Shown here in pieces: positions 11,101 through 46,175 of a DNA stretch of 64,000 nucleotides (position 1 is its first letter; every line of letters begins with the position of its first letter). Where the stretch lies: assembly GCA_029261455.1 (NCBI GenBank), contig JAJDBH010000210.1, forward strand, positions 136 to 64,135. The letters run 5' to 3'. This stretch comes from Nitrospinaceae bacterium (GTDB lineage Bacteria; Nitrospinota; Nitrospinia; Nitrospinales; VA-1). A program made the position numbers and the translations under genes. The notes under the pieces are model-generated. The model ran no database searches and was not told where the DNA came from. It saw only the letters and a list, made by a program, of their open reading frames with translations.

Positions 11101-12036
11101 ATGATTGACGCTGAATTCCTGCACAATCCGCACGACAAAGGCATGTTTTGCCACTGCCCTTCGATTCTGGAAACTCTGTCAGGCACCTTAATGGCTGTCT
11201 GGTACGTTTATCCAGAAGACGAGTATGCTGGTGCCACTCTGGCCTGTGCTAAAAAACCAAAAGGCCAAAACACATGGAGCGTGAGTGAATCTATTCTGGG
11301 CACCTCAAAATATTCCGTTGGTAATCCAGTGCTTTTTCAAGATCCTAGCGGGCGCATTCACCTGCTTTATGTGGCGCTGAAGGGGAGCTATTGGAACGAT
11401 GCCTACCTGCAGGGGGTCTGGTCTGATGACGAGGGTCAAACCTGGTCCAACCCCATTCAGCTATGGCGAAACTCTGGAATGATGGTCCGGCATCCACCGG
11501 TCTTGCTCGATTCAGGTTTATTTTTGCTACCCGCATACGATGAAAAAACCCGACAAACTGTCCTGCTTTCCAGCAAATCACCTTACTCTAAATGGCAAGA
11601 GGCCTATCGTTTCGAAGAACCTGAACTCATTCAACCTGCCATCGTTAAAGAAAATGGGTTAACTTTGGTTTTCAGGCCATCGACAGATCCTCGAAAAATC
11701 AGCTTAAGCCATTCATCAGATCAGGGAAAGACATGGTCTCAACCTGAGACCACCTCTTTACCCAACCCTTTATCTGGAGTTTCCGCCTTTTCGGCTAATA
11801 ATAATCTTGTGGTGATCTATAACCATACGGAAGAACATCAACGCTGGCCGCTTAGCGCATCATGGAAGCGAAACGGAAGCAATTCCTGGGGAAAGGTTCT
11901 ACATATCGAACCGGTTCAACTGGAAGTTTCATACCCCAGCTTTATTTTAGGGAATAACAACCTGGTGCACGGTGTCTATACCTATAACCGCCGCATGATT
12001 AAATATGTCAAGTTCGGTGAGGATACCTTTAAATAA
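11101..12036 (+). CDS. BNR/Asp-box sialidase-like beta-propeller protein
   Basis: Asp boxes SDDEGQTW and SSDQGKTW, GNPVLF, LPNPLSG, SYPS; no signal peptide. Confidence 0.85.
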   Translation: MIDAEFLHNPHDKGMFCHCPSILETLSGTLMAVWYVYPEDEYAGATLACAKKPKGQNTWSVSESILGTSKYSVGNPVLFQDPSGRIHLLYVALKGSYWNDAYLQGVWSDDEGQTWSNPIQLWRNSGMMVRHPPVLLDSGLFLLPAYDEKTRQTVLLSSKSPYSKWQEAYRFEEPELIQPAIVKENGLTLVFRPSTDPRKISLSHSSDQGKTWSQPETTSLPNPLSGVSAFSANNNLVVIYNHTEEHQRWPLSASWKRNGSNSWGKVLHIEPVQLEVSYPSFILGNNNLVHGVYTYNRRMIKYVKFGEDTFK

Positions 12037-12040
12037 TATT

Positions 12041-12643
12041 ATGGAACAGATCTCCGATTACAAAAACCTGCATCAGGGAAAAAATCTATTCATCCTCGCT
12101 TCTGGACCTTCTCTGGCAGACCTGGATCTTTCTTTATTGAAAAACAAAATCGTGATGGGACTAAATCGTTCCACTCTGGTTTACCCAGCCCCCTATTACC
12201 AATGTGTTTTCGATTACCGCCTTTTTGATCTTTATCTTAACGATTACCAAAAGGTCCGTCAGTTATTCACCCTTGAAGGGCGACCTCTGGGGTTGACCTT
12301 AAAACTGCTCGGAGGAGAAGGCTTCAGCACAGATCTTGAAGAAGGAGTTTATTCCGGCTACACCATTTCCTATTTCGCTCTGCAAGTCGCGGCGTATATG
12401 GGGTTCAATAAAATATTTTTTCTAGGTCTGGATTTGAAACACGATGGCCCTAAAACACATTTCTTTGGTCAGGACCCGCAAACCGTGAACCACGAGCAAA
12501 CCGAGTTCCCTAGAATGCTAAAAATGCTCAATTTTGGGGCAGATTTTTTAATTTCAAAAGACATCGAGGTTTATAATTGTAGTCCCTTATCCACTCTAGA
12601 GTGTTTTCCCAAAATAAGTTTCTCAGAGGCTCTGGCTTTTTAA
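12041..12643 (+). CDS. DUF115 / MAF_flag10-like (glycosyltransferase-related) protein
   Basis: ILASGPSL, ALQVAAYMGFNKIFFLGLD, VYNCS. Confidence 0.75.
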   Translation: MEQISDYKNLHQGKNLFILASGPSLADLDLSLLKNKIVMGLNRSTLVYPAPYYQCVFDYRLFDLYLNDYQKVRQLFTLEGRPLGLTLKLLGGEGFSTDLEEGVYSGYTISYFALQVAAYMGFNKIFFLGLDLKHDGPKTHFFGQDPQTVNHEQTEFPRMLKMLNFGADFLISKDIEVYNCSPLSTLECFPKISFSEALAF

Positions 12644-12908: not shown

Positions 12909-13454
12909 ATGGTAAGCAAGTTTGATTCAAGCATAAAATCAAAGCCGGTATACAAGCCTATTGAACGTTGGCTGAAGAAGATTTTTCGCTGGAAATCCAA
13001 AGAAATGCCTGTCGACGCCAATGTGGATCGAAGAGACTTTTACCGCTTTGTAACAGATAGCCGGAGTCCTTTGGACCTTTGTCTTACCATGCAGGATGAA
13101 CGGGTATTTTGTACAAACATTGATGATTTGAGTGCAAGTGGTTTCGGTTGCCACATCAAAGGTCTCGCTCGGATTCATGGCAAACAACCCATCACGGCCT
13201 TATTTGTTCTGCCCCTGGAAGAGCCTCGTATCATCAAATCGGAAGTTTTTCTGGTTTCAGTAGTAAAAGGAAATAATAATAATGATGAAGGGGATCTTTT
13301 TCGGTTCCGCTTTTCTGAAGAAATAAAAGACAGTGAACGCGATTTGATACACAGGTATATCGTGCTGAAACAATTTGAAGCTCTTGAAAGAGAAAGACAG
13401 GAAAACTCAACAGAATACGACGATGAATACTCGGACGATTTAACCGGGGATTAA
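12909..13454 (+). CDS. PilZ domain c-di-GMP receptor
   Basis: RRDFYR (RxxxR) and DLSASG (DxSxxG). Confidence 0.85.
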   Translation: MVSKFDSSIKSKPVYKPIERWLKKIFRWKSKEMPVDANVDRRDFYRFVTDSRSPLDLCLTMQDERVFCTNIDDLSASGFGCHIKGLARIHGKQPITALFVLPLEEPRIIKSEVFLVSVVKGNNNNDEGDLFRFRFSEEIKDSERDLIHRYIVLKQFEALERERQENSTEYDDEYSDDLTGD

Positions 13455-14390
13455 CGCATCGACAAATTTCTCCGGAATAAATTCCTGCAAATCTTCTGGT
13501 TTTTCACCCACGCCTACAAACCGAATAGGAAGTTTCAGTTCACCCGTCACATTGAAAAGGACCCCTCCTTTTGCCGTTCCATCCAATTTGGTCATCACCA
13601 AACCATCCACTTCCAAAGCTTCATTAAATAGTCGCGCTTGAGAAATGCTGTTTTGCCCAATGGTTCCATCCAACACTAACAAGGTTTCATGAGGCGCTCC
13701 CGGCAAGATTTTCCCTATCACCCGTTTAACTTTTTTTAATTCTTCCATCAGGTTAGTGTTGGTTTGCAACCGCCCAGCTGTATCAATGATAACCAGGTCC
13801 ATCCCACGGGCCACAGCAGCCTGGACCGCATCGTAAGCAACCGCTGAAGGATCAGCACCGCTCTTCTGAATGATGCAAGGGATGTCCGACTTCTCTGCCC
13901 AAGCTTGCAACTGTTCAATAGCCGCCGCCCTGAAGGTATCTCCAGCCGCCAGCAAAACTTTTTTGCCCTCCTGTTTCCAGTGTCGGGCCAGTTTCCCGAT
14001 GGTAGTGGTTTTACCTGAACCATTCACTCCAATAACCAGTATCACAAAGGGATTGTGTTCCGAGAATGCCAGAGGCTTTTGATGCTGCGACAAGACTTGG
14101 ACCATGCGCTGCTTTAATTGTGCCAAAACCTCCTTATTTTCACGGATCCGGTTCTGGGAAACTTCACGCTTCAGGTCTTCTAGGATATATGAAGTGGCCT
14201 GCATACCCACATCAGCAATGAGGAGGGTTTCCTCAAGCTCTTCCAGTAGCTCGGGACCAACTTTTGCTTTGCCATGAACAATGTTATCAAAACCTCCCGC
14301 AAGGTTTGAGCGAGTCTTGGCCAACCCAGATTTCAGTCGAGCGAAAAACCCTGATTTAGAGTCACTTTCTGCCCCTGATTCGTCAGCCAT
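13440..14390 (-). CDS. ftsY: Signal recognition particle receptor FtsY
   Basis: GVNGSGKTTT, DTFRAAA, DTAGR, TKLDGTAKGG. Confidence 0.97.
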   Translation of the reverse strand: MADESGAESDSKSGFFARLKSGLAKTRSNLAGGFDNIVHGKAKVGPELLEELEETLLIADVGMQATSYILEDLKREVSQNRIRENKEVLAQLKQRMVQVLSQHQKPLAFSEHNPFVILVIGVNGSGKTTTIGKLARHWKQEGKKVLLAAGDTFRAAAIEQLQAWAEKSDIPCIIQKSGADPSAVAYDAVQAAVARGMDLVIIDTAGRLQTNTNLMEELKKVKRVIGKILPGAPHETLLVLDGTIGQNSISQARLFNEALEVDGLVMTKLDGTAKGGVLFNVTGELKLPIRFVGVGEKPEDLQEFIPEKFVDALIPG

Positions 14391-14788: not shown

Positions 14789-16576
14789 ATGAAAGTAGCC
14801 GTTTGTAATTCTGTTGGAATTGACGCCGACGGGTATGCCATGATCCACTCCCCCAGTCGCTGGACCAACAGCACCAAAGACCACAACATTTTCACTTATT
14901 ATCCTTGGCAGTTGGCTTATTGCTCGTCCATCCTGAAACGGGACACCGACCATGAAGTCAAATTTTTTGATGGCTGTCTGGAAAAATGGGACCATGACAC
15001 ATTTGTTGAAAAAGTCTCCGAGTTTGGCCCGGATTATCTGGTCATGGACTGCGCCACACGTACCATTGACGCCGATAGCCGATTCGGTAAAGAAATTAAA
15101 AAAAGGTTTGGGACAAAGCTGATTTTCTGCGGACCTCATCCCACCACTTTTCCCGAAGAAGTGAGCGAATACGCCGACCATGTCATCCTGCGGGAATATG
15201 AAATGGTTGTTCTTGATATCCTTCAAGGCAAAGACCTTGCCTCCATTATGGGTCTGTGGCCCAACTCCAACATCAGGCCTCCGCTTGATGTGAACAATTT
15301 GCCACTTCCAGAAGATGATGATGTCTCACGCTTGCAATATGGAATGCCGGGCGAACCTTCCAGTGAATATTTGGAAATACAGGCGTATGCCTCTAGAGGC
15401 TGCCCCTTGTCCTGCACCTTCTGCGTGTGCGGAAACATCTCATATCAACGTCCTAACTGGCGGCCAAGAAACCCGGAAAATGTAGTCTACGAATTACATA
15501 ACTTGCGCGCCAAGTATCCGAATTTGGAAGGTATCTTTTTTGACGAAGAGGTTCATAACGGAAGCAAAAAATATATCCTCGAGCTGACCAAAGCAATCCG
15601 CGACAACGGACTCGATGACCTGAAATATGATGTCATGTGCGGTCAGTGGCCCATGGATGAAGAAGTTCTCGATAACATGAAAGGTGCTGGCTATTACATG
15701 GTTCGGCTAGGAATAGAGACCGCCGGCGAGCACGCGGCGAAGGGAATGGAACTGCAGAGAAAATTCAATGTTCCCAAACTCAAACAACTCATGAAACATG
15801 GCACTAGTATCGGCCTGAAATTCTATGGCACTTTCACTTTCGGAGGAGAAGGTTCCACCGATGATTGCGATAAAAAAACTCTCGATCTCATTCATGAACT
15901 TCTTGATCGCGGTTTGTTGTGGAGGTTTCAGCTTTCTATCAGCACTCCGCAACCGGGTACCCCATTCTTCAATCGCATGAAGGAACAGGGTTACCTTCAG
16001 GATATGGATTGGAAGCATTTTGATGGAGGAAACCATGTCGTGGTAAACCGCCCGGAATACCCGGCTGATAAAATCATGGCCAACTTCCGAGCTGCTGAGA
16101 AGCTGTATGAAATAGGTTTCAACCAACGCTACAATGCCACTGCCAAGGATAATTTTAAAAACCTGGAACTCAATTCCAATGGCGAGATTCTTATTTTCCG
16201 CAGTTCGAGGATGAAACAGATCAACGATGTTGTGGACTCCGTCCATAATCAGTTCAAGAAGCACGTGACGGTTCTCGCGCAACCCGGCGTAGAGCAGGAG
16301 TTGAGGAAAAACCCACATGTAAATGAAGTCATCCTTTACGGAGACTCGCATTTCAACCAGAAAACGTTCCCTGACAGTTTAATGGGACAGCTGAAAAAGA
16401 AATCGTTTTCACTGGGCGTGATTCCTTTTAATAATATATCCGGAAACGGCTACTCCGAAGTCAAAGCCATTGCAAAACGTTCTGGAATCAAAAAACTGGT
16501 CGCCGTCAATGTCGAGGGCAAAGTGTTTGACCTGGAAAACCCAGGTGACTTTGGCCGCGCACATATTCCCGGTTAA
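14789..16576 (+). CDS. B12-binding radical SAM protein (HpnJ-like N-terminus) with C-terminal GT9-like half domain
   Basis: SRW..YYPWQLAY, SRGCPLSCTFC, FFDEE, GIET, TPQPGTPF. Confidence 0.88.
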   Translation: MKVAVCNSVGIDADGYAMIHSPSRWTNSTKDHNIFTYYPWQLAYCSSILKRDTDHEVKFFDGCLEKWDHDTFVEKVSEFGPDYLVMDCATRTIDADSRFGKEIKKRFGTKLIFCGPHPTTFPEEVSEYADHVILREYEMVVLDILQGKDLASIMGLWPNSNIRPPLDVNNLPLPEDDDVSRLQYGMPGEPSSEYLEIQAYASRGCPLSCTFCVCGNISYQRPNWRPRNPENVVYELHNLRAKYPNLEGIFFDEEVHNGSKKYILELTKAIRDNGLDDLKYDVMCGQWPMDEEVLDNMKGAGYYMVRLGIETAGEHAAKGMELQRKFNVPKLKQLMKHGTSIGLKFYGTFTFGGEGSTDDCDKKTLDLIHELLDRGLLWRFQLSISTPQPGTPFFNRMKEQGYLQDMDWKHFDGGNHVVVNRPEYPADKIMANFRAAEKLYEIGFNQRYNATAKDNFKNLELNSNGEILIFRSSRMKQINDVVDSVHNQFKKHVTVLAQPGVEQELRKNPHVNEVILYGDSHFNQKTFPDSLMGQLKKKSFSLGVIPFNNISGNGYSEVKAIAKRSGIKKLVAVNVEGKVFDLENPGDFGRAHIPG

Positions 16577-16579
16577 TCA

Positions 16580-17167
16580 ATGGAGGCAAAGGACAGCCAA
16601 GTGAATATACTGGTTATTCGTTCCGCCACGCGGATTCTAAATCAGACCCTGCTTTCTCTAAGAGAAGAGTTTCCGGACTGCAAGATCACTGTTTTGGTTC
16701 CGCAATCAGCCCAGGAAGCAGTCGCACAAGACCCCCTTGTGAATGAGGTTCTCACCATCCCAGATCAACGCAGGATGGGTATTGCTAGCTACGGCAAGGC
16801 AAACATCACTCGTCTGCAAGAAAGAAAGTTTGATCTTGCGATTGCTCTTTACAATATTGACCACGGATTGGGTTACGCAAATATTGATCGCTTAGCCTGT
16901 GCCGCCAAGGCCAAAGAAGTACGAGGCTATAATCCTAAAGGTGCTTTCGTAAAAATGGACTCTGCCAAGGCAATGCGCAAATCCATTATGGAGAAAACCA
17001 CTTTTTTCTGGCTGGCAATCAATTATGCCGCCACGGCCCTGCTTTGTTTCATCATTACTCTGGCATTGATCGGAGAATGGGGAGTCCGCAAACTGTTCGG
17101 TGCTTTTTCTCCCAAGCCTTACCAACCTCCAGTGCGGGAACCCAATAAAGCGGTCACGCAATCCTGA
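16580..17167 (+). CDS. GT9-like N-terminal-domain protein with C-terminal TM helix
   Basis: ILVIRS...FPDCKITVLV...DPLVNEVL...LQERKFDLAI resembles the heptosyltransferase N-domain. Confidence 0.65.
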   Translation: MEAKDSQVNILVIRSATRILNQTLLSLREEFPDCKITVLVPQSAQEAVAQDPLVNEVLTIPDQRRMGIASYGKANITRLQERKFDLAIALYNIDHGLGYANIDRLACAAKAKEVRGYNPKGAFVKMDSAKAMRKSIMEKTTFFWLAINYAATALLCFIITLALIGEWGVRKLFGAFSPKPYQPPVREPNKAVTQS

Positions 17168-18930
17168 TGAAAACCAAGAACATCATTGTCGCCAATTCTG
17201 TTGGAGTCGACCGAGATGGTTACCACATGGTCCATGTTCCTTCACGCTGGTCTCTAGGTGTGAAGAACTTCACCAATTGCGGGTATTACCCTTGGGAGCT
17301 GGCTTACACTTCTTCACTATTGAAGCGAGAGACCAACCATCACGTGAAGTTCATGGATGGTGTGCTTAATGGATGGGATTTTGAAACCTATTTCAAGCAT
17401 GCCAGTGCAGAAAAACCCGATTGGCTCATCATGGAAAGCTCGACGCGCACAATCCGTGAAGACCTGCGTCTTGCCTCTGCACTCAAGGAAACTTTTGGGA
17501 CGAAACTGATATTCACGGGTCAACACCCTATGGCTCATCCCGAAGATGTTCTTAAAGTCGCGGACCACGTTTGCATCGGTGAATATGAATTTACAGTTCT
17601 CGATCTGATTCAAGGAAAAGACTCAAAGAAACTCACTGGCGTTCACCCGAATGCCCGAGGCGAACTGATCGACATCAATGCTCTGCCTTTCCCAGAAGAT
17701 GATGATATAAGCCGTATTGATTATCACGAACCCAACTGCAGATACAAACAGATTCAGATGTACGGATCTAGAGGTTGCCCGCGCCGTTGTAATTTCTGCG
17801 CTGCCGCAACACTCTATTACGATGAGTTGAACTGGCGCCCGAGAAATGTTGATAACGTGGTTGAAGAAATCCGCACCTTGCACGAGAAATACCCGGAAAT
17901 GGAAGGCGTGTTCTTCGACGAAGAAGTCCACAACATAAAAAGAAGTTTCAATATCTCACTTGCTAAATCCATTCGCTCTGCTGGGCTGGACCACCTCAAA
18001 TACGAAGCCATGTGCGAATACGCTTCTCTGGATGAAGAAGCTCTGGAAGAAATGCGCTCAGCGGGATATTACAAAATCCGTTTTGGGATTGAAACCGGGA
18101 GTGACAAGGTCGCTGAAAAAATGACCCTCGGCAAGAAACACGATCTTAATAAACTTCGCACAATGGTTAAATTTGGCAAAAGCCTGGGCATGCTGTTTTA
18201 CGGAACCATAAGCATTGGCGGACTTGGCTCCAGTCGCGAAGAAGATCAAAAAACAGTGGATCTAGTTTATGAAATGGCATCTCAAGGATGGCTCGATGAA
18301 ATACAGGTTTCTATCAACACTCCTCAGCCGGGAACCGATTTTTATAATTCCTGCGTAGACGAATCCCTACTGTCACCCTCGACAGACTGGGAAGGGTTCG
18401 ATGGCAACGGTCAGGTTGTGGTCCACTACCCGCATTATCCTGCGGAGGAAATCCAGACGAACTTTAACAAGGCTCTATCCGCTTTTGATCTGGGAAAAGA
18501 ACAGGTTCAATCAAAAACTTTTTCAAACAATGCCAAGTCTTCATTCAATATAATTCCTGATGGGTCAAGGATTTTGGTACTCAGAAATGTCAGAAACTGG
18601 ATGATTCGCCTTATCCTGGAAAATTTAAACACAAAGGCACAGGTCGATCTTTTGGGACAGGATGTTTCTGCCAAAGATATGGAGGATATGGACGGGTTGA
18701 ATCAAGTCTATTCTTACGGAACAGGATTCTTTTCAGCCGAATCGATTTCTACCGACTTGATAGAGCAACTCGAGAACCAACATTACGATTTTGTTCTGAT
18801 CCCCGTTGCCAACAATCACCTGCAAGGTTATCAAAATGTTTTGGATGTCGCACAAATGATCGCGCCCGAAGAAATCTTATACGTCTACCCCGAAGGCCAC
18901 CTGCAACCTGTCTCACCCGTAACAATTTAA
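17167..18930 (+). CDS. B12-binding radical SAM protein, paralog of 14789-16576
   Basis: SRW..YYPWELAY, SRGCPRRCNFC, FFDEEVHN, GIETG, TPQPGTDF. Confidence 0.88.
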   Translation: MKTKNIIVANSVGVDRDGYHMVHVPSRWSLGVKNFTNCGYYPWELAYTSSLLKRETNHHVKFMDGVLNGWDFETYFKHASAEKPDWLIMESSTRTIREDLRLASALKETFGTKLIFTGQHPMAHPEDVLKVADHVCIGEYEFTVLDLIQGKDSKKLTGVHPNARGELIDINALPFPEDDDISRIDYHEPNCRYKQIQMYGSRGCPRRCNFCAAATLYYDELNWRPRNVDNVVEEIRTLHEKYPEMEGVFFDEEVHNIKRSFNISLAKSIRSAGLDHLKYEAMCEYASLDEEALEEMRSAGYYKIRFGIETGSDKVAEKMTLGKKHDLNKLRTMVKFGKSLGMLFYGTISIGGLGSSREEDQKTVDLVYEMASQGWLDEIQVSINTPQPGTDFYNSCVDESLLSPSTDWEGFDGNGQVVVHYPHYPAEEIQTNFNKALSAFDLGKEQVQSKTFSNNAKSSFNIIPDGSRILVLRNVRNWMIRLILENLNTKAQVDLLGQDVSAKDMEDMDGLNQVYSYGTGFFSAESISTDLIEQLENQHYDFVLIPVANNHLQGYQNVLDVAQMIAPEEILYVYPEGHLQPVSPVTI

Positions 18931-19233: not shown

Positions 19234-19467
19234 ATGGTTCGCCACGCTAACATAGAACCTCATAATTCCTATAATACAAATGAGGTTTCGGAAATACTTG
19301 GGACAAGCGAGAAAACCGTTGAGCGCATGACAGAGGAGTTTGAGATTTTAGTTGGAGAGCCTAAGCCGGTTACGCTTCAAGGGTTTATAGTCAGGAAGAA
19401 CAAAAAGGTTTCCCATGACGAGCTAGTATCTTTTCTTGAAAGAGGAGCTAAGGCGATTTGTGAGTGA
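19234..19467 (+). CDS. Small HTH (excisionase/MerR-like) DNA-binding protein
   Basis: YNTNEVSEILGTSEKTVERM resembles an HTH_17 helix-turn-helix. Confidence 0.6.
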   Translation: MVRHANIEPHNSYNTNEVSEILGTSEKTVERMTEEFEILVGEPKPVTLQGFIVRKNKKVSHDELVSFLERGAKAICE

Positions 19468-20203
19468 TGAAAAAGAAATGACCAAGAAGGAAGAAAAAGC
19501 TGTTCGCTGGGCATATAAGTTGACAATTGCTTACTTCGTCGCGGTCTTGTTGATTGCTTTTGCTAATTGGCTAGTAGGCCCTCACGCCAGAGTAAATTTG
19601 AATGAACTGGGTGATTTCTTTGCTGGAGCCATGTCTCCACTTGCAGTATTTTGGCTCGTCATGGTTTATCTACAACAAAGGAAGGAAATGAGAGAACAGG
19701 TCAGGCAGACTCAAGAGATTGCAGTCGCCACAAGAAAACAAGTTGAAATAATAGATGAACAATTCCACAAACTACATGAACCTTTATTTGTTTTTGTGGA
19801 AGATCAGTCCAAGGCTGATGGAAGCGAAGTTCAATTTAAAGTTTTAGCTAAAAACATTGGTGGAGTAGCTAAAAACCTATGGGGTGTTGGTCCTAAAGAT
19901 ACAAAGATAATTTTTCAGGATTTTGAAACTGCTATTCAAGGCCAGACAGGGCTTAAACTCCGTATAAGATTCAAGGATACAGTTTTCATTGAAAAGGGCT
20001 GCCAATTTACAATTTCATTTACCCTTGAACTTTTAAATGATGATGAAAAAAACAAACCTTATCCATTTGAAATTCATTATGAAGATTCTCTAGGAAGAGT
20101 TTTTATTCAAAACTGCAAATATGCGTATACAAAGCAACAGTTAAAACCGGATCTTTTCTTCGTGGGCAGGGCACAGTTGCAAAACACAAGGTCCAACCTT
20201 TAA
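19460..20203 (+). CDS. Hypothetical 2-TM membrane protein
   Basis: LNELGDFFAGAMSPLAVFWLV..YLQQRKE motif; GTG start behind AGGAG, overlapping the upstream stop. Confidence 0.7.
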   Translation: MSDEKEMTKKEEKAVRWAYKLTIAYFVAVLLIAFANWLVGPHARVNLNELGDFFAGAMSPLAVFWLVMVYLQQRKEMREQVRQTQEIAVATRKQVEIIDEQFHKLHEPLFVFVEDQSKADGSEVQFKVLAKNIGGVAKNLWGVGPKDTKIIFQDFETAIQGQTGLKLRIRFKDTVFIEKGCQFTISFTLELLNDDEKNKPYPFEIHYEDSLGRVFIQNCKYAYTKQQLKPDLFFVGRAQLQNTRSNL

Positions 20204-25631: not shown

Positions 25632-27170
25632 ATGGCTGACTTTACACGCGAAGAAATTGAAGAGAAGTTAGAAGAGTATGTCGAACTGCTTGCGGCCCGG
25701 GAAGAAGAGGAAGACGAGTTCATAGATGAGCCCGAAGAGGAAATCCAAGCCGCTATCAGCGAAGCACCTGTTGGCGAAGAAGAGGAAAACCCAGACGGCA
25801 AGGATGAAGCTATTGAGGAAGTCGCTGAAGAAGCCCTCGTAGCAGTCGTTGAGGAAGAAGAACTCGGCTTGGAAAACATATTTGATGAGAAAGACCTATC
25901 CGAACTGGACCTATCTGGAATTGACTTTCATGGTATCAGCCTGCAAAAAACCAATTTCAAGAACACCAATCTCTCTAATAGCACTCTCGCGGAATCGAAC
26001 ATGGACCAGGCTAATCTGGATCAGGCCAACCTCAGCGATGCGGATATGGAAAACATAAGCTGTCTGGAAGGGGTAATGACCCACGCTAATATGGAGGCTA
26101 CAAACCTTCAAGGGGCCAAGCTCCTGGGAACCGATTTCAGTGAATCTAATCTGGAAAGGGCCAATTTTAGAAGGTCCAAGTCCATGGATAGCAAACTGGT
26201 CAAATGTAATCTTAGCGATACTGATTTCAGCAGTTCCGATTTCTCACGTGCAAACTTGACCGATGCCAAAATCACCGATAGCGACTTGAGCCGAGCCCGG
26301 TTTAATAATGCTGTTTTTGAGAGGACTGATTTCACCGATTCCCGGTTGAGCATGGGAGTCTTTTTTGAGGCTGACTTTAAAAATGCAAACCTCAACCGTG
26401 CCTTGATAAAAGGAGCTAAGCTCGCAGGAGGAAACTTCACCGATGCCAATCTTGCACGGGCTGATATCACCGGAGCTGACCTCACAGATGCACGCTTTCA
26501 TAACTCAGACTTGAGCCGCGCTAAATTAAATGGTGCCATACTGAGAAGAACGGACCTTAAAGATTCCGACTTGTCCGAAGCAGATATAAATCTCGCAGAC
26601 CTGACCGGTGCAAACCTGGTTGGAGCTAAATTGTCTGGGGCAAATTTAGACCGTATCAAATTAAATCAAGCCAAGTTAAATGGTGCGCAATTAAGTGGGG
26701 CCAGAATGACCAAGGCCAAGTTAACCCAAGTAGATTTGACCAAGGCAGATTTGAGCGGGGCTAACCTGACAGGAGCTGAGTTAAACGAGGCCATACTTGA
26801 AGGGGCTGATCTTAGTAGAGCTAATTTAACAGAAGCCATCTTGAAAAATACGAACTTGAAAAACACGTTCCTGATTGGAGCAAATCTGCAAAAAGCAAAT
26901 CTAGAAGGAGCAAATCTGGAAGGTGCAGACTTGGCAGGAACAAAACTTAGGAAGGCCACTTTACAAAATGCTAACTTGAAACAAGTAGATCTACGGCGAT
27001 CTGATTTGGAGCATGCTGATTTCTCTAAAGCAAAGCTGAACTCTGCAAATTTCACAGGAGCAAAGATGAGTGAAAGCCTGTTCATAGGTGCAGACCTGAC
27101 AGGAGCCAAAATGGACTCTGCCGACACCACAGACACCCAGTTTGAAGGAGCCATCGGGTTTAAGGCCTAG
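25632..27170 (+). CDS. Pentapeptide repeat protein with Glu-rich N-terminus
   Basis: About 420 aa of A(D/N)LxxA-type repeats after a highly acidic ~85-aa leader. Confidence 0.93.
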   Translation: MADFTREEIEEKLEEYVELLAAREEEEDEFIDEPEEEIQAAISEAPVGEEEENPDGKDEAIEEVAEEALVAVVEEEELGLENIFDEKDLSELDLSGIDFHGISLQKTNFKNTNLSNSTLAESNMDQANLDQANLSDADMENISCLEGVMTHANMEATNLQGAKLLGTDFSESNLERANFRRSKSMDSKLVKCNLSDTDFSSSDFSRANLTDAKITDSDLSRARFNNAVFERTDFTDSRLSMGVFFEADFKNANLNRALIKGAKLAGGNFTDANLARADITGADLTDARFHNSDLSRAKLNGAILRRTDLKDSDLSEADINLADLTGANLVGAKLSGANLDRIKLNQAKLNGAQLSGARMTKAKLTQVDLTKADLSGANLTGAELNEAILEGADLSRANLTEAILKNTNLKNTFLIGANLQKANLEGANLEGADLAGTKLRKATLQNANLKQVDLRRSDLEHADFSKAKLNSANFTGAKMSESLFIGADLTGAKMDSADTTDTQFEGAIGFKA

Positions 27171-31283: not shown

Positions 31284-32549
31284 TCAGGCATCCAGGGTTA
31301 GGTCATCTTTAGGGATGCTAATGCACGCAAGACAGGAACCTGCTTCGGGCTCCGACCCGGGTTCTCCCACTAACTCCACCGCACCATTCTTGATAGCAGT
31401 GAGACAGGTTCCACAATTGCCGGCACGGCAACCTGAATCAATGGGGATCTGGTTCGCTTCCGCGAAATCCAGCAATGATGCCGCTTTTGAATCCCACACC
31501 AAAGTTTTTCCTGACTTCTGAAACTGGATATTAATTTTAGCAACGCTTTCCTTGCTTGTTTCGACCTTGCAACCTTTAACTGTAGCTGGACCAAAAGCCT
31601 CAAAATGAATATTTTTTTTGGGAACTCCCCAGCCGTTTAAATCTTTTCTCAAATCTTTAACCATTGGAGGCGGAGCACAAATATAAAAATCAAAGTTATT
31701 TGACGGAAGAATTGCCTTTAAATTTTCTACAGTAACCCGACCCTGAACTTGATAATCATCGTTCAACACATCGGTTTCTGCTGGCGAACTATAAAATACA
31801 TTCAAGCTAACGTTTTCATTCTCCCTAGCCACCATTTCCAGGTGCTCCTTCATAATATGCTCTGCCCTGTTTCTCACACCCAAGAAAAACCAGACCTCTC
31901 TCTGGGAACCCATTTCAGTGATGGCATTGAGCATGCTGAGAACAGGGGTGATTCCCACCCCTCCCGCTAAAAATACTACCGGAGTTTGTTTCATCATACT
32001 CAGGCTAAAATGTCCACTGGGAGCTTTAACATCGACTATGTCATTCTCGTTCAGAGAATCATGAAAATAGTTGGAAATTAATCCAGGAGGAGCAGTAAGG
32101 TTGTCTCTTGGAGCCAGGACTCTTTTGATAGATACTCGATAGCGATCCGGATGGTAAGGGCTGTCGGATAGAGAATAGCAACGAATAACCGGCTGAGGCT
32201 GATCGGGTAAATGAACCTGAAAAGTCAGAAACTGTCCCGGTAAAAATCCGGGCAGCTCCTTACCATCATGTGGAGCGAGATAAAAGGAAGTAATATCGTC
32301 CGTTTCTTTGACTTTAGAGATCACCTGAAACTTTCTAAAACCGTTCCAAGACAGTTTCAACTGCTTTGTTTCGATTTCACGCCGATCCATTATGCTTTTG
32401 ATCTTCGCCTTTAACAGCTCTGCTTCCAAATCAGCACTGTTCTGGCTAATCGCAAGAATCCGCGAGTTATTAGCCAAAAGCACTAACACATAGGCTACCA
32501 ATCCTAATAAAAAAACCAGCGCAACAAAACTGAATATTATATTTAGCAC
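31284..32549 (-). CDS. Membrane-anchored FAD/NAD(P)-binding oxidoreductase with C-terminal [2Fe-2S] ferredoxin (FNR/PaaE/Hcr-like)
   Basis: N-terminal TM; RCYSL, GGVGITP, HFEAFG, CRAGNCGTC...C. Confidence 0.9.
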   Translation of the reverse strand: MLNIIFSFVALVFLLGLVAYVLVLLANNSRILAISQNSADLEAELLKAKIKSIMDRREIETKQLKLSWNGFRKFQVISKVKETDDITSFYLAPHDGKELPGFLPGQFLTFQVHLPDQPQPVIRCYSLSDSPYHPDRYRVSIKRVLAPRDNLTAPPGLISNYFHDSLNENDIVDVKAPSGHFSLSMMKQTPVVFLAGGVGITPVLSMLNAITEMGSQREVWFFLGVRNRAEHIMKEHLEMVARENENVSLNVFYSSPAETDVLNDDYQVQGRVTVENLKAILPSNNFDFYICAPPPMVKDLRKDLNGWGVPKKNIHFEAFGPATVKGCKVETSKESVAKINIQFQKSGKTLVWDSKAASLLDFAEANQIPIDSGCRAGNCGTCLTAIKNGAVELVGEPGSEPEAGSCLACISIPKDDLTLDA

Positions 32550-32588
32550 AATCTCTCCTTAAAGATGAAGCATGCCGCCATTGATACT

Positions 32589-34481
32589 CTACGGTGTTGT
32601 TAAAACTGGCTCTGTCTTCACGACAAGCATATCTTTTTTAAAGCTTGGTTTGAAATGATACAAATGGCATTTCTGGCATTCAAGGTCAATTTGCAACTTC
32701 GAATGACACTGCATACAAGTCTTCTTACTGATGAACTCAAAGTTACTGACCCAATTAACGGAGTCGTATTGCTTAAAAGACGCCATATAGTCCACTTCCT
32801 TATTAAGGATATGACAATTCGAGCATGCGCCTTTGGTTCCTAATATTTCTATATGATTTTCATGCTTATAGCGCACATAAGGGCTGTCATTTTTATTTTC
32901 ATAATTCCATGCCACCGCTAAATGGGAACCAACCTTTGAATTTTTAACCTCCGATACCGCATGGCATTTGATGCATCCACCCACGCCATCCTTAACAGAA
33001 AGAATCTGATCACGCATAGCAATCGCTCTTGCTGCCTTGTCTTCCTCTTTCTGATTTAAAGACACAGCCAAGGCAAACTCTAACCAGCTTTTAACCACGG
33101 GGTCAGCATGCCCTGAAGGTTTGTAGCGGATTTCCAGCATGTCGGTATACCAACCTCCAAACCTCGCCTCTGCGGGAGACTCATACTCCAGATTCAGCCC
33201 CCATGAGCAAGCCGCACGTTTGAGCACTTCAGGGTTCAAACCCATCAACAGGTTTTCAGACATTGGGGTTTCCGTTTGACTATCAATCAACTCCGCGAAG
33301 GGAGTGCTACTTTCTTCAGCCATAGCAAGAACCAGATCCTGCATAGGTTGGTCATAAATTTCCGGGTCATCTTCAGGAATATTTAAAAGAAAGGCACTCA
33401 CTAAAGCCGGTTGTTCGGTAGAAACACTGAGAAATTCTTCCTCCTCTTTTACATTACCCTCTGGAAAATTACATGCCTGCACCAAAGAGTCGTGGTCAAT
33501 CCGGTTTTGTATCAACTCCGGAAGCCTAAGGAGTATGAGATCTTTTTTCTTGATCTGCGAATCATGACAAGCAGCACAAACTGTCTCATAACTACTCGGA
33601 CGTACCTCCCTGTCCTCTAGCGTTATCATGTGGCAGCCTATGCATGACTCTGGAGCTTTGTCAGAAACCTTGGGATTCTCAAAATGCTTTTTCAAGTGAG
33701 AGCTATGATCAAACTTGATCGAGTTGCGGTTGAAATAGGGGTATTTTTTAGAAAACTCAGGATGCCCGTGCTCTAAGCTCGTGAACTTACTCTTATGGCA
33801 TGAATTGCACTGTTCTGGGAACAATGCTCTAACATTCATGCTTGGTCCATTATGCTCGCGATGGCACATGACACATTGCGTATCACCAACTTTTCTTTCT
33901 GGAGACATATTGGCGTTATGTGCCTTAAAACTCGGGCCACCAAAACTATGGCAATTCACACACCGGGATGAAAGATCAGAATCGCTGAATACTGCATTAA
34001 TCCATTCTACAGGACCTTTGCCATGAGCTGCATGACAAGTGGAACAACCTTCTTTTTCGGTAAATTTGGCATGGGATTTGGACAAGGGTCCAGGATCAGA
34101 AATACTGATCATACCTCCAACCTTAGGATCCAGCACCAGAGAGGAACCTATCAAGGCTAAAACAATACTAACAGCTAGCAGTGCCAATCTTCCACGGATG
34201 ATCCGCAAGGTACTTCGAGGGGCACATGGCGACCTTTGGATTGAGCATTCTCCACCTGAACCAGGACCGTCTTCACACGGACCACCGAATCTTTTCTCCC
34301 TCCTGCATTCCCATCGATCATTTTTTAGAAACGGGGTGCATTCCTGAGTTCCACCGCAGGTTCCATCCACCTCCGGACCATGATTACAGGGTGTTTGCCA
34401 TAAAGATGCTCTCCCACAACGATAGGGTAGTTTAGGCCTTTCATAATAACTCTGATCGTGACCAAACTTATTGTCTTCCAT
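32589..34481 (-). CDS. Membrane-anchored decaheme cytochrome c with Cys-rich N-terminal domain
   Basis: 10 CxxCH motifs after a single TM helix; 8 non-heme Cys before the TM. Confidence 0.9.
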   Translation of the reverse strand: MEDNKFGHDQSYYERPKLPYRCGRASLWQTPCNHGPEVDGTCGGTQECTPFLKNDRWECRREKRFGGPCEDGPGSGGECSIQRSPCAPRSTLRIIRGRLALLAVSIVLALIGSSLVLDPKVGGMISISDPGPLSKSHAKFTEKEGCSTCHAAHGKGPVEWINAVFSDSDLSSRCVNCHSFGGPSFKAHNANMSPERKVGDTQCVMCHREHNGPSMNVRALFPEQCNSCHKSKFTSLEHGHPEFSKKYPYFNRNSIKFDHSSHLKKHFENPKVSDKAPESCIGCHMITLEDREVRPSSYETVCAACHDSQIKKKDLILLRLPELIQNRIDHDSLVQACNFPEGNVKEEEEFLSVSTEQPALVSAFLLNIPEDDPEIYDQPMQDLVLAMAEESSTPFAELIDSQTETPMSENLLMGLNPEVLKRAACSWGLNLEYESPAEARFGGWYTDMLEIRYKPSGHADPVVKSWLEFALAVSLNQKEEDKAARAIAMRDQILSVKDGVGGCIKCHAVSEVKNSKVGSHLAVAWNYENKNDSPYVRYKHENHIEILGTKGACSNCHILNKEVDYMASFKQYDSVNWVSNFEFISKKTCMQCHSKLQIDLECQKCHLYHFKPSFKKDMLVVKTEPVLTTP

Positions 34482-35311
34482 TATACGAAGTACACCATAA
34501 CAAGGGTTAAATGCCAGATCACCATTGCCATTACCGCACCTGCCAAGGGAATGTGGACCAGAAGCCAGGTTTTAAGTAATGTTTGAAGTGCATAATGAAA
34601 GTCAATCTTCCTCTTTTTTTCTGCTAGCGCATAAACCTTGTCCAAATATTCACGTTCCTTTTCATTTAAGAAACGTTCTAATATCATGCATTGCTGGTGC
34701 ACCCAATGCTGAGGTAGGTGGCTACCAAATATATTATTTATGAAAAACCTTGGCCGTTGAAAATATTGCCCCAAGGTTTCCAGATAATGTTCGGCCAGCG
34801 TACTACTACCGGTTTCTTCGGTACACTTCAGAATAAGAGACTCTACTTCCTCTCTTATTTCAGCAAGCTCTCTTGGAATGCGTTCATAAATGACTTCCAC
34901 ACCGCTTCGGGTTAGCTGACGGGGATAAACTTTTTCAATAAAGAGTCCCACTATTCCTGAAATAGAGGTGATATAAAATAGAACCGTCATCACCTGCCCA
35001 TAAAATCCTTTCGACCATATGCCTCCGATGTGTAGCCAAAACAAGAACAGAGCCAGAAACCCGCAAACCACGTGAAGTAGAAACCATCTAGATGAAGAAG
35101 CAAGAGGCAAAAATGGCAATCGCTTACGTGCACTAAAAAGAGAAAGAAAAATCAGTATCCCAAATAATACCCAGCCATTGGCAAAAGCTGAAATACCGAG
35201 GGCGCTATCAATCTGATAGGTCCACATCCATGTCACTAGAAATAAAAGAGTCGCCAAAACCACGTAGACCCAATTTCGGACTAGACTAAAACCCTGTTGA
35301 ATTTTCATCAA
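34481..35311 (-). CDS. Integral membrane protein, putative di-heme cytochrome b (ferric-reductase-like)
   Basis: Multiple TM helices; two H-x13-H pairs (LHVVCG...WLH and VHIPL...WH). Confidence 0.7.
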   Translation of the reverse strand: MMKIQQGFSLVRNWVYVVLATLLFLVTWMWTYQIDSALGISAFANGWVLFGILIFLSLFSARKRLPFLPLASSSRWFLLHVVCGFLALFLFWLHIGGIWSKGFYGQVMTVLFYITSISGIVGLFIEKVYPRQLTRSGVEVIYERIPRELAEIREEVESLILKCTEETGSSTLAEHYLETLGQYFQRPRFFINNIFGSHLPQHWVHQQCMILERFLNEKEREYLDKVYALAEKKRKIDFHYALQTLLKTWLLVHIPLAGAVMAMVIWHLTLVMVYFV

Positions 35312-37007
35312 TATCTATCTTTCTAAAGTCTACTCGGCTCATGGCATCATGCGGGCAGGCAAAAACACAGGCTGGCCCACTAATCTGGTCGGCACACAGG
35401 TCACACTTCGTCGCCTTAAGTATGGGTTTCTGATTCTGAGGGTCTGTAATTAATTGCCCTTCATGATCGTTGATCGACACCATCCTGATATTGGAATAGG
35501 GGCAGGAGTTCGCACAAGTTTCGCAACCAATACAAGTATCATCATTAATAATGACCATACCTCCAGACATGGACCGATGAATCGCACCAGTAGGACAACC
35601 GATCATACAAACAGGATCAGCACAATGCATGCAGGCATTGGCCACCATCCAGTTCCCAAAAGTCTTGCCATGCCTGACAAATCTGGGATTGCCATCATGC
35701 GTTGCGGAGCAAGCCTGAACACAGTCATCACACCGCACACATCGATCAAGATTAATCAGCATCGCCTGAGTTCCATTTATAAAACGTTCTTCAACCGCCC
35801 ACTCCATTAAAGCTCCATCGGTCAAGGTACGATCGATATAATCCTGCAACCGCCTTGACTCAAAGGAAGACTGCGAAGTCGCCTGTCTAAACCCTTCTCT
35901 ACCAGATGACCAGTAAGTGAATAGGTGTTTCTCTACAATTTTACTAGGTACCCGGAGCATTTCTGCGTACCCAATAGCTGTGATGGTCACTCTCATACCA
36001 ACATTAGGTTCTCCCTGCCATACTTGGAACAGTTCGTCCGCTCCGTAAAAATCCCCTGTACCCAAATAGGTTAGAGTCTGCTGGCCATTTCCCCGGTCTA
36101 CAGAAACCCGAGCAAACCCAGCCCGAACCAATAATATTCCATCTGAATAATCGCCCTGATTGGCAATAATCGGTTCATCCTTGATGCCATGGGTTTTATC
36201 ATGACTTTGAAGCTTGTTATAGGTTAGATGCCAATCAAATTTTCCGTAGGTTTCAAAGAGGGTGGCATCTGCCACCTCCTGAAGATCTTTATCATCTAAG
36301 TGAGAAAAAATGGAAGTCGCCCTTAGGTGGGCGTTGAGGGCGTTGGTACGATAACGCTGATCAATGAGGCGGCGCCATCCTTGATCATATTTCCTGAACT
36401 CACGGAGTCCCTGCCAGCGTATCTCCAAAAGCTCTGTATCGGATTCTGCAAAAATAGTGGATGTTCTAGGGGTCCGCCCCAAGGCGGCAAGTTCTCCAAA
36501 TAACGCTCCTTTTCCCAGAGAAGCGGTTTTATTCTTATCTAAAACAGCAGGAACATCTTGGAGAAAAACATGTGATGACCCCAAATCCTCCGCATCTCGA
36601 ACCATAGCATGCAGACCATAGCGTTTTACATCACGGGTTTCCGGAATTTTACTCCGGGTCCAAAGCTGTTTGAGGGCTTGCCAAAAGGTTTTTTTTTGAA
36701 TGGTTCGTCGACCTAGCATTTCACCAGGAAGGCCAGGGAACAACACGACTTTTAGTGAACCGTCCAGAACCAGGAATGCAGAATTGCCATAGTCTCCCTC
36801 GCGGATGACAATGTCTCCCGCTGAGTACTTTACAATCCGCGCATCATTTTTAAGAATTCCTCTGAGAGAGCAATGAGGGGGAAATTTGCTCTCTTCTATC
36901 GCTGCAATCTCTGGAGTGGTCAACAGCCGGTCCACATCCAATTCGGTCATAAGCAGACCGAATGGTTGGTCCCACCTCTGCGGACGCACTTGAGTCGTTA
37001 TAGCCAC
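35286..37007 (-). CDS. Tandem cyclic-nucleotide-binding domains fused to a DmsB/NrfC-like 4x[4Fe-4S] domain
   Basis: IREGDYG...FGELAALGRTPRTSTI; second CNB fold; CVRCDDCVQAC, CMHCADPVCMIGC, CIGCETCANSC, CDLC...CVFAC. Confidence 0.9.
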   Translation of the reverse strand: MAITTQVRPQRWDQPFGLLMTELDVDRLLTTPEIAAIEESKFPPHCSLRGILKNDARIVKYSAGDIVIREGDYGNSAFLVLDGSLKVVLFPGLPGEMLGRRTIQKKTFWQALKQLWTRSKIPETRDVKRYGLHAMVRDAEDLGSSHVFLQDVPAVLDKNKTASLGKGALFGELAALGRTPRTSTIFAESDTELLEIRWQGLREFRKYDQGWRRLIDQRYRTNALNAHLRATSIFSHLDDKDLQEVADATLFETYGKFDWHLTYNKLQSHDKTHGIKDEPIIANQGDYSDGILLVRAGFARVSVDRGNGQQTLTYLGTGDFYGADELFQVWQGEPNVGMRVTITAIGYAEMLRVPSKIVEKHLFTYWSSGREGFRQATSQSSFESRRLQDYIDRTLTDGALMEWAVEERFINGTQAMLINLDRCVRCDDCVQACSATHDGNPRFVRHGKTFGNWMVANACMHCADPVCMIGCPTGAIHRSMSGGMVIINDDTCIGCETCANSCPYSNIRMVSINDHEGQLITDPQNQKPILKATKCDLCADQISGPACVFACPHDAMSRVDFRKIDIDENSTGF

Positions 37008-37127
37008 CCACCACCTCCAAAACGCACAACATGAAGAGGCAAACCTGTCATCTAACTCTGGAGTTGTGACTCTTAATATACTATTAACGATTCAGGGAAA
37101 CCAAAACCCAGGCTATAAACTTCCTCC

Positions 37128-38105
37128 CTATTTATAATCCGCTTTAGCTGGGAGCTTACTTCCAACAACCCCGGTCAAATCTTTTCCCGCTACAGATTTA
37201 ATAAAGATTAAAGCATTTTCTCTTGAAGGTGCGGCTAATAATCCCGCCGCTTCAGAAATTCCACTAAGCGCGGACTTGGCAATCTCAACTCGTTTGTTTT
37301 GCGCTTCCTTATATTTAGCCTCACCAGATTTAGAAATGGCTTCAGTGGCAGAAACCAGCGCCGCCGCTTGACCAATCACATAAAGACTAGCCAACTCCGT
37401 AGGAGTCATTTCAGCATTGGTCTTGATATCGGGTGGATAATGCCTGTGACGCACTGAACCTTGAGAGTATTTAACCAGTTCGAAGTTGGGGTTAATCGGA
37501 TGTCCGGCTCCCAACATTTTAGCCAAGTCATCGGCTTTAAGGTTGGGGTGAGCCAGACCATGGCAAGTCATGCAGTTTTCAGCAACCTCATACTGCATGG
37601 ATGGCCATATCAAACCCGCCGCCTTGGAATCAGCAACCCGTTTGATTTTATGATCCGCCGCTTCCTGATCTCGCTTAACATCCTTCCCACCATAATTATC
37701 ATGAAGCGCCAACCAATCAGAAGACGCACCATGGCAACTTTCACAAGAGGTTCCAGACTTTGCAGCCGACTTGGAACCGGCATCTTTCTTCACAAGCGTG
37801 TAATGGCACAGATAACAGGTTTCATTCCTTTTCATCCGTTTCTGTCCCCCAACAGCACTCAATATTTTCTTGGGAGAGGGTTTACTATCATCTTTAGGCT
37901 CTCGGTGAACAGTCCTAAAAGACGTGTAATGCTTGGTTTTCTCCCAAATCTTGGTCTCTTCTTCATGACATTCCTCACAGAGCTTGGCACCTTTGAAAAA
38001 AGGTTGGGCCATTGATGTAACAGGAAAAACCAGCCATGCTAACGCCAAAACCAACGCCATCAGAGAAAAAGGTTTAAATATGAAATATGTATCATCACGC
38101 TTCAT
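37128..38105 (-). CDS. Periplasmic tetraheme cytochrome c (c554-like)
   Basis: Signal peptide; CEECH, CYLCH, CESCH, CMTCH; start MKRDD behind GAGGG. Confidence 0.88.
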   Translation of the reverse strand: MKRDDTYFIFKPFSLMALVLALAWLVFPVTSMAQPFFKGAKLCEECHEEETKIWEKTKHYTSFRTVHREPKDDSKPSPKKILSAVGGQKRMKRNETCYLCHYTLVKKDAGSKSAAKSGTSCESCHGASSDWLALHDNYGGKDVKRDQEAADHKIKRVADSKAAGLIWPSMQYEVAENCMTCHGLAHPNLKADDLAKMLGAGHPINPNFELVKYSQGSVRHRHYPPDIKTNAEMTPTELASLYVIGQAAALVSATEAISKSGEAKYKEAQNKRVEIAKSALSGISEAAGLLAAPSRENALIFIKSVAGKDLTGVVGSKLPAKADYK

Positions 38106-38185
38106 AACACCCTCACTTTTTAAAGGGAGCGGTAACACAACCCAGCAAATATTGCAGGGCCGGAAAAACCCGATCCACTCTCAAA

Positions 38186-39613: not shown

Positions 39614-39655
39614 TCTCTCTTAGCCTCCAAGTATCGCAGAAAGGTTAGTCCTGAA

Positions 39656-42682: not shown

Positions 42683-42685
42683 GGC

Positions 42686-44792: not shown

Positions 44793-44794
44793 TT

Positions 44795-46126: not shown

Positions 46127-46175
46127 AAGTTTCTCATCAGAAATTTATAAGAGTTTAAAACCATAATTTATAGTT

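Follow-up and report, generated by a model that had tools for sequence, protein, structure and literature searches.

What could two radical S-adenosylmethionine (SAM) enzymes and a small, putatively membrane-anchored protein do together, when they are encoded back to back and all three carry a domain that resembles one half of a glycosyltransferase (GT)? The question is raised by a locus in a stretch of 64,000 nucleotides (the window) from a Nitrospinaceae bacterium of the order Nitrospinales (GenBank assembly GCA_029261455.1, contig JAJDBH010000210.1). From its distribution and its relatives we infer a substrate, a chemistry and a complex for this triad: it very likely tailors a surface glycan, and the chances are about even that this glycan is a nonulosonate-type (sialic-acid-like) sugar bound for flagellar proteins via a Maf glycosyltransferase. 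The features of the locus, in which GT9-N stands for the N-terminal lobe of GT family 9, are the following.

14789..16576, + strand: radical SAM paralog 1, 595 amino acids; Rossmann-like N-domain, radical SAM barrel and GT9-N-like tail
15401..15424, + strand: CxxxCxxC motif of paralog 1 (residues 205-212), from sequence, invariant in alignments
16175..16543, + strand: GT9-N-like tail domain of paralog 1 (residues 463-585), from profile comparison
16580..17167, + strand: small protein, 195 amino acids; stand-alone GT9-N-like domain and predicted membrane anchor
16601..16963, + strand: GT9-N-like domain of the small protein (residues 8-128), from profile and fold
17015..17071, + strand: hydrophobic segment of the small protein (residues 146-164), basic on either side, predicted transmembrane or re-entrant helix
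17167..18930, + strand: radical SAM paralog 2, 587 amino acids; architecture as in paralog 1, the member retained when the triad shrinks in family f2
17776..17799, + strand: CxxxCxxC motif of paralog 2 (residues 204-211), from sequence
18559..18912, + strand: GT9-N-like tail domain of paralog 2 (residues 465-582), from profile comparison

The original prediction, made from the letters of the window, had described three tightly coupled genes, and the open reading frame coordinates agree: all are on the + strand, with a 3-nt gap between the first and the second gene and a 1-nt stop/start overlap between the second and the third. The sequence motifs quoted at that time are all found in the triad proteins. 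Close relatives of these proteins belong to named Nitrospinaceae/Nitrospina; in the homolog search with the small protein the best 120 of 296 matches are all close relatives, the named ones being Nitrospinaceae/Nitrospinae.

The triad is inherited with a sugar module of the flagellin locus

The distribution of the enzyme family was surveyed in 102 genomes of the order, where it is present in 67 and missing in 35. Co-occurrence with other genes, searched with single queries at fixed E-value cut-offs, was counted as genomes with both/enzyme only/gene only/neither; G020, in which the operon is broken, was counted as enzyme-positive. Two genes of the flagellin locus follow the enzymes most closely (phi 0.80-0.82): an SpsF-like cytidylyltransferase (58/9/1/34, the enzymes being present in 58 of 59 gene carriers) and a Gfo/Idh/MocA oxidoreductase (59/8/1/34, 59 of 60 carriers). 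Among the 51 high-quality genomes both gave 31/2/1/17. The exception common to the two counts is G002, probably an assembly gap, since the assembly has no ftsY and the contig ends 1.2 kb beyond the downstream landmark; the absence of the enzymes from G073 and G010 is uncertain as well, because these genomes also have no ftsY match. The Maf gene beside flgE (51/16/3/32), the NeuB ortholog (51/16/4/31; phi 0.62) and the flagellin family (66/1/17/18, the sole enzyme-bearing genome without a flagellin match being 59% complete) follow the enzymes too. An accessory of Maf-type glycosylation would be co-inherited with Maf, the cytidine monophosphate (CMP)-sugar synthetase, NeuB and the flagellins, and the enzymes are, with the exceptions counted here.

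General genome reduction as the sole cause of this co-loss was rejected by means of two controls. The hopanoid gene hpnH is distributed independently of the enzymes (55/12/31/4; phi -0.08), and a control B12-type radical SAM gene (51/16/14/21; 41/10/14/5 within family f1) is retained in 14 of the 19 family-f1 genomes that are without them. The flagellated genera g4 and g11 and the genome G090 have neither the triad nor the four sugar genes at these thresholds, which ties the triad more tightly to the sugar module than to the flagellum.

The host carries two NeuB genes, a PseG-like gene, several Maf proteins (pfam01973; one directly after flgE) and multiple flagellins. The SpsF-like cytidylyltransferase lies at one end of its flagellin cluster; the oxidoreductase lies at the other end in relatives, and an ortholog is present in the host. 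In 5/5 genomes of genus g7 the cytidylyltransferase adjoins NeuB. In genome G000 (C109:5651-17505) a second NeuB was observed in a compact sugar-pathway cluster together with HisH/HisF-type genes and a cytidylyltransferase-like gene, as judged from N-termini and BLAST only.

Conservation, decay and loss of the triad

The gene order of the triad (enzyme 1, small protein, enzyme 2) is retained, wherever the contigs allow it, in 20 regions taken from 19 relatives, and ftsY stands beside the triad in 19 of 21 regions including the window, so the triad is conserved elsewhere as had been expected. In a survey of the phylum (120 genomes) the domain was found at E 1e-8 in 81 genomes and the enzyme family in 68, and a metagenome scan returned mostly Nitrospinales, 13 of 80 loci being distant. 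The divergent ftsY was used as a landmark separating true deletions from assembly gaps and is context only:

13440..14390, - strand: ftsY, divergent landmark neighbour

The triad is not always complete. Enzyme 2 stands alone at the locus of G040, and G048 has the anchor and enzyme 2; at the level of genera, g9 retains only the second enzyme and g21 the anchor with the second enzyme. These lineages contradict an obligate trimer, which was rejected, and do not support a fixed composition of the putative complex. At the ftsY locus of genomes that have lost the triad, G020 shows a junction between the paralogs, G007 and G014 have tail-only remnants, and nothing is left in G008, G025 and G090. In the decayed operons (L107 7298-7624; L225 3515-3871; L226 6069-6431; G020, G007, G014) the tail of paralog 2 persists at 72-88% identity, whereas the enzyme part has vanished largely or completely; such tails could be either remnants or selected mini-proteins. 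A role for the FG-GAP, DUF2867 and ftsY neighbours was rejected, as they are kept where the triad is deleted.

Two radical SAM paralogs of a clade between HpnJ and AprD4

The paralogs are 42% identical over 580 amino acids. Both have the CxxxCxxC motif, with cluster cysteines invariant in the family alignments, and match PF04055 at 40.6 and 47.3 bits (cut-off 29.5), which establishes the radical SAM part of their description as B12 radical SAM enzymes. The match to the B12-binding family PF02310 is borderline (32.9 and 31.6 bits, cut-off 32.1), the domain being visible in the model. TIGR03471 (HpnJ) is the best NCBIfam match, yet its scores of 118.5 and 152.7 bits lie far under the cut-off of 577.6, and the identity to annotated HpnJ is ~25%. 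Among solved structures AprD4 (PDB 6fd2) agrees best with the enzymes, both in fold (TMt 0.79, rmsd 3.5 Å) and in profile, at ~20% identity; NF033070 (AprD4) scores 47.1 and 57.4 bits, below its threshold of 500.

In a quick tree of 37 rows with SH-aLRT support, the enzyme family is a single clade of 24 rows (SH-aLRT 100) nested within a group that holds HpnJ and glycan-locus enzymes of Azospirillum and Lawsonia; the broad clade joining the family with HpnJ has a support of 96. Paralogs 1 and 2 are not sisters and cluster with different outside proteins; a recent tandem duplication was rejected on this ground, and the pair is either ancient or of two separate origins. Orthology to HpnJ was likewise rejected on the scores, the identity and the separate clade. 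What stands of the resemblance to HpnJ claimed originally is the shared broad clade and the SR..YP N-terminal loop, and HpnJ too is without the GG motif considered below. It differs from the enzymes in having no tail, and the enzymes occur without the hpnI/hpnK context and independently of hpnH. AprD4, a radical SAM 1,2-diol dehydratase of apramycin biosynthesis, shares with them the Rossmann-like N-domain, the barrel and, if their substrate is the sugar inferred here, the kind of substrate, but it serves an antibiotic pathway and not a surface glycan, its cysteine spacing in the alignment is CxxxCxxxC, and no GT9-like tail was seen for it.

Do these enzymes use cobalamin, and do they methylate? 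According to excerpts of a review, cobalamin-dependent radical SAM enzymes are marked by GG on beta4 and GE at alpha5, and one Gly on beta4 can suffice (PMC9204698). GG is found in 0/24 family rows and in 8/8 canonical comparison rows, a single Gly being present in 24/24 family rows; GE at alpha5 occurs in 21/24, and RE replaces it in paralog 1 (12/12 orthologs), for which the case for cobalamin binding, read from these residues, appears weakest. Since the review allows a single Gly, the family may still bind the cofactor, and true cobalamin-dependent C-methylation of a sugar, compatible with any target, is an explanation that we regard as rather improbable. It can draw on the near-cut-off B12-binding scores, on GE in most rows and on the encoding of B12 uptake by Nitrospinae, as stated in part of one paper (PMC8026999). 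The absence of GG and, in paralog 1, of GE is against it, and so are the nearest characterised relatives, both non-methylases: HpnJ, for which a ring contraction of bacteriohopanetetrol glucosamine is proposed, and AprD4, listed in a portion of another review as cobalamin-free despite its Rossmann-like domain (PMC12931638). With AprD4 as the closest structure and GG missing, cobalamin dependence is doubtful and so is the C-methylation proposed at first; a non-methylating chemistry is the likely one.

Two observations concern the wider family. In two assemblies (L098 4556-6369 and L182 2034-3847) a member is split between two reading frames at an identical position. A third paralog type, found in families f2/f3 (L207-L211, L214-L216), has tetratricopeptide repeats (TPRs) and is fused to a GT2 (954-964 amino acids) or has a GT2 next to it; the GT2 that follows matches the domain weakly, and the setting is a GT/TPR glycan locus.

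A GT9-derived, probably non-catalytic domain

The domain shared by the three proteins is homologous throughout, with profile-profile (hhalign) probabilities of 99.3, 99.0 and 96.2% at a pairwise identity of ~20%; the homology claimed for it thus holds, at a length of ~120 and not ~140 amino acids. The profile search and the structure search both confirmed the resemblance to the N-terminal half of GT9 enzymes. The best PDB sequence matches are the GT9 heptosyltransferases WaaF 1psw (E 0.0035) and 3tov (E 0.0012), weak heptosyltransferase matches were obtained besides, and the domain model (pLDDT 91) finds 1psw and 3tov at Foldseek ranks 1, 2 and 4 (TMq 0.61-0.68). The likeness to the heptosyltransferases WaaF, WaaC and WaaQ therefore consists of the N-terminal-lobe fold and a weak sequence match over ~85-120 residues.

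A donor-binding half is absent from all three proteins, as had been noted: no second GT-B lobe was found, both radical SAM proteins stopping after the domain and the small protein running into its hydrophobic segment, and none matches PF01075. The GD loop of GT9 enzymes holds the catalytic Asp. It is seen after beta1 in 1/143 family rows, and there not at the GT9 position, as compared to 6/6 host GT9s examined; conserved in its stead are an Arg after beta1 (87%), a G-Y pair (81%, 87%) and an NxxGxGY loop. With the GD loop, the second lobe and a PF01075 match all missing, glycosyltransferase activity of the domain was rejected; it is likely a non-catalytic derivative of GT9, to judge by these residues.

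A profile search placed the domain in 743 clusters (50% identity) at E 0.001 and in 172 at 1e-10. We examined the best 150 of the 743 clusters and scanned 50 of those 150 with Pfam: 15 proteins were without match and 35 were fusions, of which 26 have a sugar enzyme as partner. The partners comprise GT4-type enzymes (14), radical SAM (7), GT2 (4), Maf (2), methyltransferase (2) and, one each, a cytidylyltransferase, a DegT aminotransferase, a nucleotidyltransferase, GT61, GT9 and GT-C. In P0137 the domain is fused to a relative of the flagellin-locus cytidylyltransferase (E 6e-19). Taken together, the loss of the GD loop, the conserved residues of its own and the fusions to glycan enzymes identify a mobile, likely non-catalytic module, and with it an unnamed, Pfam-negative domain family that marks glycan-building enzymes across lineages. 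Four proteins (P0132, P0198, P0143, P0239) have two copies, arranged in tandem or placed behind both radical SAM modules of a protein, which hints at a function as a pair. Chains of the chloroplast NDH complex (7f9o_6; 9grx_1, subcomplex B subunit 1; 7wff_a) also match the fold of the model and are a possible precedent for a GT9 fold serving as scaffold.

The anchor form with a membrane helix is the commonest state of the domain among the members examined. In the small protein a single hydrophobic segment (residues 146-164) follows the domain, which bears out the membrane anchor as a prediction; among the short members that are not radical SAM proteins and extend 30 residues or more past the domain, 70 of 82 have such a segment at this place, and it is basic on both sides in 54 of 71, flanks that may point to a re-entrant helix. 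An Atlas search with the small protein returned unnamed clusters and one 'putative GT9' cluster.

Neighbourhoods outside the order

Ten distinct tail-bearing loci were compared after merging of duplicates (L095, L096, L098, L112, L113, L171, L175, L179, L183, L213), and nonulosonate or Maf-type genes are near five of them. NeuB lies directly upstream in L183, PseG and Maf are found in L171, and Maf, a KdsB-type transferase and FlgE in L175; NanM is near in L112 and WbuZ/HisH in L098. L113 has a domain-GT4 fusion, and L096 a sugar-type methyltransferase with an anchor; no glycan gene is adjacent in L095 and L179. Five groups of tail-less family members adjoin GT2 or GT4 genes and, in L106/L181, also GT-C genes.

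A proposed pathway and its competitors

According to the pathway that we propose, the [4Fe-4S] cluster of each enzyme would cleave SAM, and the resulting 5'-deoxyadenosyl radical would abstract a hydrogen from a carbinol carbon of the sugar, probably without cobalamin. The sugar radical would then either drop the neighbouring hydroxyl, in an AprD4-type dehydration to a deoxy-ketone, or rearrange its ring as proposed for HpnJ and for the calditol synthase Cds, the latter an archaeal glucose ring contraction according to part of the published account (PMC13459092). Cds, described in the same source, sets the example of a sugar rearranged by radical chemistry on a surface lipid; it acts on an archaeal tetraether and is likened here by description, not by sequence. 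The co-inherited Gfo/Idh/MocA oxidoreductase of the flagellin cluster could reduce or make the ketone, and through its co-occurrence (59 of 60) it is the candidate for a partner reductase of an AprD4-like enzyme. The SpsF-like cytidylyltransferase would activate the sugar with CMP, and the Maf next to flgE would transfer the product to flagellar proteins; each paralog would have a position or a step of its own. The domain common to the three proteins could bind an acidic sugar or an intermediate through the conserved beta1 Arg and the NxxGxGY loop, and, instead or in addition, gather the enzymes at the inner membrane via the anchor protein.

Maf enzymes use CMP-nonulosonates as donors, as stated in an excerpt of the literature (PMC11339370). 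Like known systems of Maf-type flagellin O-glycosylation, the host carries NeuB, PseG-like, SpsF-like cytidylyltransferase and Maf proteins and flagellins; it differs in that its genes are scattered and form no single island, and in that no radical SAM step or membrane-anchored accessory of such a system was found in the open-access literature searched. A bolder version is advanced tentatively: the triad would introduce radical SAM chemistry, for the first time, into Maf-type flagellar glycosylation and yield a deoxy or ring-rearranged nonulosonate not yet described, and the half-domain would be a general, catalytically dead module for docking or sugar reading, by which GT2, GT4, Maf, cytidylyltransferases, aminotransferases and radical SAM enzymes are held to a membrane anchor in the manner of an assembly line.

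Several points weigh against a flagellar nonulosonate as the target. The triad is not adjacent to flagellar or sugar genes in Nitrospinales, and no cytoplasmic Maf pathway is known to need a membrane anchor. The 17 genomes with flagellin-family matches and no enzymes imply that flagella do not need the enzymes; 7 of the 67 enzyme-bearing genomes, two of them 90-92% complete, have no NeuB-family match, which is present in 14 of the 35 others. Genus g4, without the triad, still has a cytidylyltransferase at the flagellin locus, though a diverged one (27-31% identity), so that fixed cut-offs on single queries can miss diverged genes, and the counts, from related and hence non-independent genomes, were taken per genome and not as losses on a species tree. 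L213, which holds the nearest relative of paralog 2, adjoins GT2, GT9 and Kdo transferase genes, a setting suggestive of LPS (lipopolysaccharide), and the identity between the enzymes and AprD4 is only ~20%. Lastly, both in the host and in 7 of 8 relatives the co-occurring NeuB has a Wzx-type flippase as its neighbour, an arrangement that speaks for a lipid-linked polysaccharide instead.

This last point leads to the strongest competitor as to the target, which we consider somewhat unlikely: on the cytoplasmic side of the inner membrane, the enzymes would tailor a nonulosonate-containing surface polysaccharide linked to a lipid carrier, for instance a Wzx/Wzy O-antigen, the flagellar link being indirect, through a shared sugar pool or a shared change of lifestyle. 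Besides the position of NeuB, the membrane anchor fits lipid-linked assembly, the domain is fused most often to GT4/GT2 enzymes (18/35), and the tail-less members stand beside GT2/GT4 and, in L106/L181, GT-C genes. The distribution argues the other way: phi is higher for the flagellin-locus genes (0.80-0.82) than for that NeuB (0.62), and in families f3/f4 the triad occurs without that NeuB ortholog in 10 of 11 genomes.

Of the glycolipid named as substrate at the outset, the sugar part is supported; LPS core or lipid A ranks below a nonulosonate-type flagellar or surface glycan, and hopanoids drop out. For LPS, the GT9-N domains would still bind what their ancestors bound, Kdo-lipid A or inner core, and would present it for radical modification. 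The domain does derive from the heptosyltransferase lobe that binds the acceptor, GT9 genes number 7 in the host, the L213 enzyme, close to paralog 2, stands beside GT2, GT9 and Kdo transferase genes, and 2 kb upstream of the triad the window contains a short WaaZ/Maf-like gene. We judge this version very unlikely all the same, as a core LPS step is not expected to be co-lost with flagellin-locus genes and the fusion partners are mostly not LPS-core enzymes (1 GT9 among 35). The profile of the WaaF-type family TIGR02195 (E 1e-50; 22 of 120 genomes, the host not among them) is too sparse to weigh this reading.

That an extended hopanoid undergoes methylation or a ring contraction in the manner of HpnJ, an idea suggested by the HpnJ match, the common SR..YP loop and the presence of shc (a fragment) and hpnH in the host, was rejected as extremely improbable: hpnH is retained in 31 of 35 genomes without the enzymes, HpnI and HpnK, the makers of the HpnJ substrate, are below cut-off in 5/5 triad genomes tested, the scores (119 and 153 bits, cut-off 578), identity and separate clade speak against HpnJ itself, no HpnJ over cut-off was found in the host, and no hopanoid gene was identified beside family members in the annotated loci.

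Other genes of the window

Upstream of the triad by 2 kb (11101-12643, + strand), a BNR-repeat (sialidase-like) gene overlaps the short pfam01973/WaaZ-like gene; the pair is present in 5 of the 21 regions compared and may be part of ulosonate handling. Between the triad and the FG-GAP gene sits a Pfam-negative protein of 255 amino acids (19436-20203, + strand) that was not found in the 20 regions from relatives. Further on are a long repeat protein, of pentapeptide type by eye and with a very acidic N-terminus (25632-27170, + strand), and a multiheme cytochrome cluster with a cNMP-binding/4Fe-4S protein and a ferredoxin-NAD reductase-like protein (31284-41608, - strand). The run at 41837-47228 (- strand), which encodes a fatty acid desaturase, a class I/II aminotransferase, an unknown protein, an epimerase/3-beta-HSD and a CDP-alcohol phosphatidyltransferase, would resemble a sphingolipid or aminolipid pathway.

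Meaning of the finding

No description of the enzyme clade, the domain family or the Maf-pathway link was found in the open-access literature on Nitrospina, nonulosonic acids and flagellin glycosylation, and within it the system is undescribed, as had been supposed; an excerpt on a Legionella LPS locus mentions a radical SAM open reading frame in passing (PMC3766260). The parts themselves are of known kinds.

The finding assigns a concrete, testable role to a radical SAM clade that lies between HpnJ and AprD4, is as yet uncharacterised and would be labelled B12 methylase by automatic annotation, and it predicts new sugar chemistry on a nonulosonate-type glycan. It also delimits a domain family that has neither a name nor a Pfam match (743 clusters at 50% identity) and tags glycan-building enzymes across lineages, and the pattern of co-loss names the partner genes that a reconstitution of the pathway would need.

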